Positions 17,465 to 18,238 of a DNA stretch of 21,957 bases are shown piece after piece. Location: IMG/VR virus record IMGVR_UViG_2606217100_000005. One strand, 5' to 3'. The notes beneath the pieces were generated by a model. The model saw only the letters and a program-made list of their open reading frames with translations. It did not search any database and was not told where the DNA came from. A program made the position numbers and the translations under genes. Source of the DNA: a virus (taxonomy: Duplodnaviria; Heunggongvirae; Uroviricota; Caudoviricetes). Position 1 is the stretch's first letter; each line of letters starts with the position of its first letter.

Positions 17465-18238
17465 TCAAAAATTAGGTGAGTAACGGACCGGGGACATAGC
17501 TCCTTTTTTTCTTAATTCATCTGGTATTTTTTTTCCAAGATAAAGATTTGCTATTTCAGGTGGGGCTTCTCGACCTTCAAAACCATAGCGCGAACTTTGT
17601 GTTGCCTCAAAGTCCGGATCCTCGTCCCAGTATTTCATCGTAGGGAAATTTTCACGTGTTGATTTGAGCCATTTATCAGCAATGAAAACCCCTCGAACGA
17701 TCCCCCTTACAGTAGCAAGAATGATTTCTGCTTGGCTGGCGCGAGAGACATTAATGCGCCAGCTAAATCGAACCGCATCATAAAGCTCTGAATCCTTTGC
17801 ACTTCTGTTAACGGATATCATTAATGCTTTATGATGAAATGTTATGGTTTCGGGCTGATATGTTGCTATCAACTCTTTGACATGCGCGGCGCCGAATTCA
17901 TTGCTGCCAGCACCATTCATGATATTCGTTAACCCAGGGTAGGCATCAATAAGTGCTGCTTCAACTTCGTACGCCGTCTTTTCATCAGTCATTCCGTGTC
18001 GATGGATGACATGGATAACTTCAAGTCCTGCTAACCTTATTTCTCTAATTTGCTTTAGCTTGTTGCTCAGTAACTCGTCATCATCAGTCGCTGCCACTTC
18101 ACCGCGCATATGGGCAAATACGCGGTTACCTTTGCCTTTCCCTACATAGAAGGTGCTTCCGTCCCTCGGATCAATCAATCGGTATACATACCAGCCAAGG
18201 TGTTCAATTACTCCAGAAGGAAACTCAGTAATATCCAT
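17465..18238 (-). CDS. GIY-YIG nuclease-domain protein with uncharacterised C-terminal domain, 257 aa
   Basis: N-terminal [28 protein letters not shown] matches the GIY...YIG motif spacing; C-terminal 150 aa not recognised. Divergent from the methyltransferase gene. Confidence 0.7.

Follow-up and report, generated by a model that had tools for sequence, protein, structure and literature searches.

PD-T4-3 is an anti-phage system that, as cited by Liu et al. (Nat Commun, January 2026; PMC12923530), was first discovered by Vassallo et al. (2022) in Escherichia coli ECOR68; Liu et al. characterised it, solved its crystal structures and renamed it CMoRE. The string 'PD-T4-3' was not found in the main text of Vassallo et al., and the statement of that work on direct defence is likewise taken here through Liu et al. 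In this study, a stretch of 21,957 nucleotides from a tailed-phage record (Caudoviricetes; IMG/VR IMGVR_UViG_2606217100_000005), the whole of which is called the window, was analysed with a focus on an ATG-started open reading frame (ORF) of 257 amino acids (aa) on the minus strand at 17465-18238. We put at about 0.93 the probability that this gene is an intact PD-T4-3/CMoRE, namely a prophage-borne type IV restriction enzyme that depends on 5-hydroxymethylcytosine (5hmC) or its glucosylated form (5ghmC) and guards against T-even phages.

The published data on CMoRE cover both its activity in cells and its biochemistry (PMC12923530). Expressed from native promoters in BL21(DE3), CMoRE reduced the plating of T2, T4 and T6 by approximately 10^5-fold, with strong defence by the O157:H7 native-promoter construct, and cells survived and grew normally at a multiplicity of infection above 1, indicating direct immunity and not abortive infection. 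The purified enzyme, which requires Mg2+ or Mn2+, degraded T-even DNA and amplified DNA containing 5hmC or 5ghmC, and DNA with cytosine or 5-methylcytosine (5mC) was neither bound nor cut; T4(C) escaped CMoRE and T4(hmC) remained sensitive. Cleavage occurred at CN11/N9G sites with 2-nt 3' overhangs, needed two modified cytosines and almost no particular sequence, and spared the host genome.

Liu et al. located the GIY-YIG domain at the N-terminus and described an extra tyrosine in its motif (Y17-x-Y19 ... Y31). Over the active site there is an acidic loop of 15 residues, and the 4A mutant, in which four acidic residues are replaced by alanine, cuts ordinary DNA and is toxic. The enzyme is a tetramer whose oligomerisation and defence are abolished by V92S/L96S, and Y127 through its main-chain oxygen contacts the 5-hydroxyl of 5hmC. 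A Capnocytophaga homologue with 48% identity is also modification-dependent and cuts Mu DNA too (PMC12366544). PD-T4-3 functions alone in BL21 and K-12, and in the clinical E. coli isolate NILS69 the gene is active at its native locus, since its deletion renders the strain sensitive to Tevenvirinae; phage NIC06_P2 escapes this native-level system.

The PvuRts1I/AbaSI family combines an SRA-like reader with a Vsr-like nuclease and is likewise 5hmC/5ghmC-dependent. As judged from PMC12923530 and the general AbaSI literature, these enzymes resemble CMoRE in substrate class, in cutting at a fixed distance from the modified base, about 9-13 nt away, in their preference for two symmetric modified cytosines and in leaving 2-nt 3' overhangs. 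In contrast, the GIY-YIG enzymes Eco29kI, Hpy188I and I-TevI recognise a sequence in unmodified DNA and depend on a cognate methylase or on an intron context, whereas CMoRE reads a modification, needs no partner and has the extra tyrosine (Y17) and the acidic lid.

Identity and functional residues of the GIY-YIG gene

The 257-aa ORF had been pointed out in an earlier note made from the letters of the DNA alone, and it is present in the ORF list at the same position and on the same strand. As 6560 database sequences are homologous to it at E<=0.001, the ORF is certainly a gene, far beyond chance. The PADLOC profile PDLC04031 for PD-T4-3 matched the protein at E 2.5e-140 (residues 1-256 on profile positions 1-255/256), the PHROGs library gave phrog_5356 at E 3.9e-143, and the Protein Data Bank gave E. 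coli O157:H7 CMoRE (9U75/9U8D, E 5e-172) and avian pathogenic E. coli (APEC) O1 CMoRE (9U7U/9U7Z, E 7.6e-151), both over residues 1-257. All three libraries, which are independent, identify the protein as PD-T4-3/CMoRE, and its architecture is that of type I. The NCBIfam search returned zero matches, and the present RefSeq name is 'LEM-3-like GIY-YIG domain-containing protein'.

A residue-by-residue comparison with the O157:H7 crystal sequence, which is exactly the translation of the EDL933 chromosomal allele, revealed the same length and 252 identical positions among 257 (98.1%). The five substitutions from the window allele to the crystal are conservative (T51A, E55D, Q169K, I172V, and N197H); none lies at a residue reported as functional, and E55D preserves the charge. 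Identity to the APEC O1 enzyme is 85.6%, with 37 substitutions mostly in the C-terminal domain. By its sequence, therefore, the object is already known, as it corresponds at 98% identity to a characterised and crystallised enzyme. It was also observed that N197 (codon at 17648-17650) is invariant across 38 family members and that the crystallised O157:H7 protein has an atypical H197.

The N-terminal GIYxY-YIG nuclease domain (approximately aa 1-110) is encoded at 17909-18238 on the minus strand. The earlier note had proposed a GIY-YIG region here, and this is borne out by the Pfam model LEM-3_GIY-YIG (PF22945), which covers residues 28-110 at E 2.1e-14 and 54 bits against a gathering cut-off of 27; the generic Pfam GIY-YIG model matches the N-terminus weakly. 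The motif reads W16-Y17-V18-Y19 ... F30-Y31-V32-G33. The same note called the C-terminal domain unrecognised. This holds for Pfam, in which no model matched residues ~118-257 at E<=10 in the window protein and 37 homologues (38 sequences), and does not hold for structure, as the domain has been solved in PDB 9U75/9U7U. It is encoded at 17468-17887 on the minus strand (aa 118-257, including Y127) and is the modification-sensing domain.

In an alignment of 35 family members with ~50-99% identity, Y17, Y19, Y31, R39, H43, E93, N105 and Y127 were invariant. R39 and E93, along with H43 and N105, are present in the window protein, and the first two were assigned as the catalytic arginine and glutamate by alignment and invariance. 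The tetramer-interface residues R80, V92 and L96, which also lie in the N-terminal domain, are kept, residues 20-30 (the beta1-beta2 loop) are identical to the O157 sequence, and Y127, the residue contacting 5hmC, is retained. The four codons of the acidic lid, D52-D53-D54-E55, assigned from the sequence as the autoinhibitory loop, lie at 18074-18085 on the minus strand; the tetrad is DDDE in both the window protein and the APEC O1 crystal and DDDD in the O157 crystal. Judged from these alignments, the window allele carries every functional residue named by Liu et al.

The mechanism has been demonstrated for the 98%-identical allele and is transferred to the window allele by similarity; selective cleavage of 5hmC/5ghmC DNA and protection against T-even phages with survival of the cell are also known for homologues with 86% and 48% identity. 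The window protein would assemble as a tetramer (a dimer of dimers), in which the C-terminal domains of one dimer would recognise two 5hmC/5ghmC bases ~21 bp apart (CN11/N9G), and the N-terminal GIYxY-YIG domains would make a Mg2+/Mn2+-dependent double-strand cut with 2-nt 3' overhangs. The acidic loop D52-E55 over the active site is expected to repel ordinary DNA, so that host DNA, including CCWGG sites that Dcm or the neighbouring EcoRII methylase has 5-methylated, would be spared. Incoming T-even DNA would thus be destroyed early and the cell would survive, as in direct immunity and not in abortive infection.

The mobile cassette and its expression

The homology of the window to the EDL933 locus extends over 17407-18436 and stops at both ends, and in other genomes without EcoRII the homology ends at ~18439-18452. 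These limits define a mobile unit of ~1 kb composed of the ORF, 198 bp upstream and ~58 bp downstream. The length, the motif, the acidic lid, the interface residues, Y127 and this cassette including its flanks are all shared with O157:H7 CMoRE. The setting differs, since the window cassette lies beside EcoRII in an ssrA-borne prophage remnant, whereas the EDL933 copy follows the pin invertase and has no restriction-modification neighbour. The APEC O1 enzyme has the same architecture and tetrad at the lower identity given above.

The 198-bp upstream region (18239-18436, minus strand), bounded by the EDL933 homology limit, travels with the gene and presumably contains its native promoter; this DNA of ~200 bp is 95% identical to the EDL933 locus. 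A weak sigma-70-like candidate, TTGTGA-17 nt-TAATAT at 18302-18274, was read by eye and scores 8/12. Downstream, a putative intrinsic terminator of the gene lies at 17398-17442 on the minus strand, in the 69-bp gap to the tail fibre assembly (tfa) remnant, and consists of a GC-rich hairpin followed by UUUUUCUUUUUU. Its RNA fold has an energy of -26.1 kcal/mol (z -4.26), and none of 200 shuffles was equally stable; the consensus scan did not flag this hairpin, which together with its U-tract is a probable terminator.

Several caveats attach to the assignment of the gene as a working PD-T4-3/CMoRE. The scan for sigma-70 and terminator consensus over 17350-18700 found no promoter at threshold, and its counts were no better than those of shuffles. 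That PD-T4-3 is expressed from a cryptic prophage is an assumption, and protection by the APEC O1 allele from its own promoter was weak (PMC12923530). In addition, the numbering of R39 and E93 is our own alignment-based assignment and was not taken from PMC12923530. No sequence feature counts against the PD-T4-3/CMoRE reading.

One alternative is that the gene, though intact, is not expressed or is expressed at too low a level to matter, so that it would be carried along in a gutted prophage without protecting the strain. The surrounding prophage indeed lacks replication, lysis and structural genes, the upstream consensus stays below the scan threshold, and both the weakness of the APEC O1 allele under its native promoter and the escape of NIC06_P2 in NILS69 speak for this view. 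However, the ORF is full-length with every functional residue, the upstream block of ~200 bp is conserved with the O157 locus, from which the native-promoter construct was strongly defensive, and the native-locus gene restricts phages in NILS69. Moreover, the cassette was kept when the rest of the prophage decayed, which suggests selection. We therefore regard a silent passenger as unlikely.

Distribution and the EcoRII neighbour

The PD-T4-3 gene was found in 823 of 5426 complete E. coli genomes (coverage >=80%). It is located after tfa or pin at prophage ends, and its neighbours vary by genome: in EDL933 and strain H7, where other prophages carry the cassette, it comes after the pin invertase at the tail-fibre end and is followed by unrelated genes, and the neighbours are unrelated among EDL933, strain H7, E6474 and 13C1079T. 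The gene is thus prophage cargo.

In the window, the gene lies next to a genuine EcoRII pair, in agreement with the restriction-modification pair expected from the letters alone. The EcoRII-type C-5 cytosine methyltransferase is encoded at 18645-20078 on the plus strand, is not part of the single-gene PD-T4-3 system, and matched Pfam DNA_methylase at E 4.7e-78 together with DNA_meth_N, as well as PADLOC MTase_II at E 4e-230. Its ORF extends up to 18603, which is the first ATG; in identical loci RefSeq places the start at the equivalent of 18645. The EcoRII restriction endonuclease (404 aa; 20113-21327, minus strand) matched PDB 1NA6 at E 3e-243 over residues 1-403 and contains the Pfam domains EcoRII-N and EcoRII-C. 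The PD-T4-3 and methyltransferase genes are divergent, and the spacer of 364 bp (to 18603) or 406 bp (to 18645), which fits the AT-rich region of about 400 bp described in the earlier note, has 35.5% G+C against 41.9% for the window.

This arrangement raises the possibility that the gene is a third component of EcoRII, such as a second nuclease that the adjacent methyltransferase controls or that depends on it. The head-to-head orientation across a common AT-rich spacer speaks for it, as does the conservation of the three-gene block: the 3.9 kb of PD-T4-3 and EcoRII (17465-21327) is conserved at 99-100% in ~240 of the 823 PD-T4-3-bearing E. coli genomes, in different prophages. However, ~70% of the gene-bearing genomes have no EcoRII alongside, EcoRII occurs without PD-T4-3 on plasmids and on at least one chromosome, and different contexts cease to be homologous within the spacer, at ~18436-18452. 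The ability of the enzyme to work alone in BL21 and K-12 and its failure to bind or cut 5mC DNA also speak against dependence on the methylase. A role as an EcoRII component is therefore very unlikely. Based on the unrelated neighbours and the ~240 of 823 genomes with EcoRII, PD-T4-3 is an autonomous single-gene system, and EcoRII is its frequent but optional neighbour. A GIY-YIG type II enzyme of the Eco29kI/Hpy188I type was also considered and rejected, since the adjacent methylase pairs with the bona fide EcoRII nuclease and most PD-T4-3 loci have no methylase.

The two systems can coexist because 5mC, the product of the EcoRII methylase, is ignored by CMoRE. A T-even phage would evade EcoRII through its hydroxymethylated or glucosylated cytosine and thereby become a CMoRE substrate; conversely, a mutant reverting to cytosine would evade CMoRE and should then face EcoRII, which cuts unmodified CCWGG. 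Going by the layout of the locus, EcoRII and CMoRE together would close the T-even escape route by cytosine hypermodification, as separate systems and not as one. The 3.9-kb block may accordingly be a selected two-layer trap for modified or unmodified cytosine that moves between prophages. The large share of PD-T4-3-bearing genomes in which EcoRII is missing, given above, is a caveat to such cooperation.

Sensor fold, prophage context and meaning

In the report of Liu et al. (PMC12923530), neither a sequence nor a structure search turned up a homologue of the C-terminal domain, the domain was called a distinct fold, and soaked 5hm-dCTP was seen at the domain edge and not in a pocket. An AlphaFold2 model of window residues 118-257 reached a predicted local distance difference test score of 84.8 and a predicted template modelling score of 0.79. 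With this model, Foldseek returned VcaM4I as the top non-self match (E 0.06, probability 0.75), with YTH and ASCH domains next in rank, and a second, independent AlphaFold model, of the full-length homologue P0059 (55% identical), gave comparable scores. A coherent list of this kind appears hard to attribute to chance. At the level of sequence, the Pfam models EVE, ASCH, YTH and SAD_SRA gave no match even at E<=10 in the 38 sequences, and a search of all PDB sequences with a family profile recovered CMoRE itself only.

These models indicate that the C-terminal sensor is probably a divergent PUA-like reader (EVE/YTH/ASCH) at the fold level. In the predicted barrel, Y153, R157, W160, W190, F198, R217, F220, Y233 and Y253 are aromatic or basic positions that do not vary. 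This PUA-like assignment would be a small addition to the published work and differs from the 'distinct fold' of the paper. Bell et al. (2020; PMC7641849) predicted EVE-GIY-YIG fusions as type IV enzymes. The chances appear evenly balanced that the sensor is an extremely divergent PUA-like reader that makes CMoRE the first characterised EVE-GIY-YIG type IV enzyme, with duplex binding perhaps by base-flipping into the barrel pocket and not by edge contact. Compared with VcaM4I (EVE-HNH, PDB 6YEX) and the EVE-GIY-YIG fusions, CMoRE has no EVE, ASCH, YTH or SRA profile match, and its domain order is nuclease first.

The earlier note had offered the protein as either a defence or a selfish nuclease, and it is the first half that is upheld by the identity with PD-T4-3/CMoRE. 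A selfish GIY-YIG homing endonuclease (I-TevI/Seg type), which would cut a cognate site to spread its own gene, is extremely improbable, since the gene has neither an intron nor an intein context, a Pfam search of the window protein and 37 homologues found no NUMOD, zinc-finger or helix-turn-helix module, the C-terminal domain binds 5hmC and is similar in its predicted models to PUA-like readers, the cut depends on a modification, asks for almost no particular sequence and leaves the host genome untouched, and the gene moves as prophage accessory cargo with varying neighbours. The catalytic motif, whose inactivity would have spoken against a nuclease role, is intact. The fold also excludes a Vsr-type repair enzyme, which the note had set aside on its motif.

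Relatives of the gene were also observed in lytic jumbo phages (~250-285 kb; Serratia Moabite and 2050HW, Pseudomonas OBP and Klebsiella N1M2), which encode full-length PD-T4-3 homologues with 38-47% identity, annotated 'homing nuclease' by their depositors. The two that were aligned, those of Serratia phage Moabite (L005, 2501-3262) and Pseudomonas phage OBP (L006, 2492-3250), keep Y17, Y19, Y31, R39, E93 and Y127 and lack the acidic autoinhibitory tetrad. Such lid-less homologues may be offensive nucleases against competing phages or host DNA.

PD-T4-3/CMoRE in the window is carried by a prophage remnant at ssrA. The ssrA (transfer-messenger RNA) gene was found by ARAGORN at 21556-21918 on the minus strand, and its 3' end serves as the attachment site. 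This end is present twice as a direct repeat of 33 nt, at 7732-7764 and 21555-21587 (32 of 33 positions identical), and the repeats bound a 13.8-kb element (7765-21555). The element includes an integrase (9393-10565), an S24 repressor (14725-15399), YfdQ/YfdR-like early genes, a CII-like gene and an Ash-family gene. It is a lambdoid prophage without replication, lysis and morphogenesis/structural genes that has kept its integrase, immunity region and defence cargo.

The location of the cassette between tfa and the attachment site, as first described, proved correct for the ssrA repeat and for the presence of a Caudo_TAP gene; tfa itself is only a 5'-truncated remnant (16942-17395, plus strand; Caudo_TAP E 8.8e-46), a 159-aa ORF left from a 194-aa gene. 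Homology to the intact lambdoid prophage of E6474 begins at 16942, and a full tfa there would start at window position 16811. At the deletion junction 16941/16942, the ORF of the Ash-family regulator (16282-16992) passes into what is left of tfa, its 3' two-thirds. From 16942 to 21582, a block of 4.6 kb, the window matches the right end of the E6474 prophage at 99.9% identity. No complete E. coli genome was colinear with the whole 22-kb window, the best covering 87% in four pieces; therefore, the exact mosaic of the window is strain-specific.

Other features of the window were also recorded. A second integrative island (1-7647) lies in tandem left of the ssrA repeat and contains a P4-type integrase (6337-7647), a large serine recombinase (4498-6054), two ParB/RepB-like genes (2719-4508) and an IS3 transposase orfB (297-1163). 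Between the attachment repeat and the prophage integrase, two overlapping plus-strand ORFs of 271 and 129 aa (8191-9379) had no Pfam or PADLOC match and matched only phrog_17809 and phrog_5176 among the PHROGs of unknown function; they may be cargo at the other end of the prophage. In the related genome 13C1079T this position is occupied by other genes, one of which encodes a STAS-like protein. A minus-strand ORF of 296 aa at 10774-11664 belongs to phrog_12528 (unknown function), and its weak PADLOC match to Csx27 (E 1.4e-5, 23.6 bits) is probably not meaningful.

For annotation, the protein now called 'LEM-3-like GIY-YIG domain-containing protein' in RefSeq can be given the name type IV 5hmC/5ghmC-dependent restriction endonuclease (PD-T4-3/CMoRE). 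The gene itself adds nothing new to the field; only the sensor's likely PUA-like ancestry and the repeated occurrence beside EcoRII lead forward. By analogy with the characterised alleles, the source strain is probably resistant to T-even-like phages, which is relevant to phage therapy and phage typing, and its EcoRII system would restrict those T-even mutants that revert to plain cytosine.
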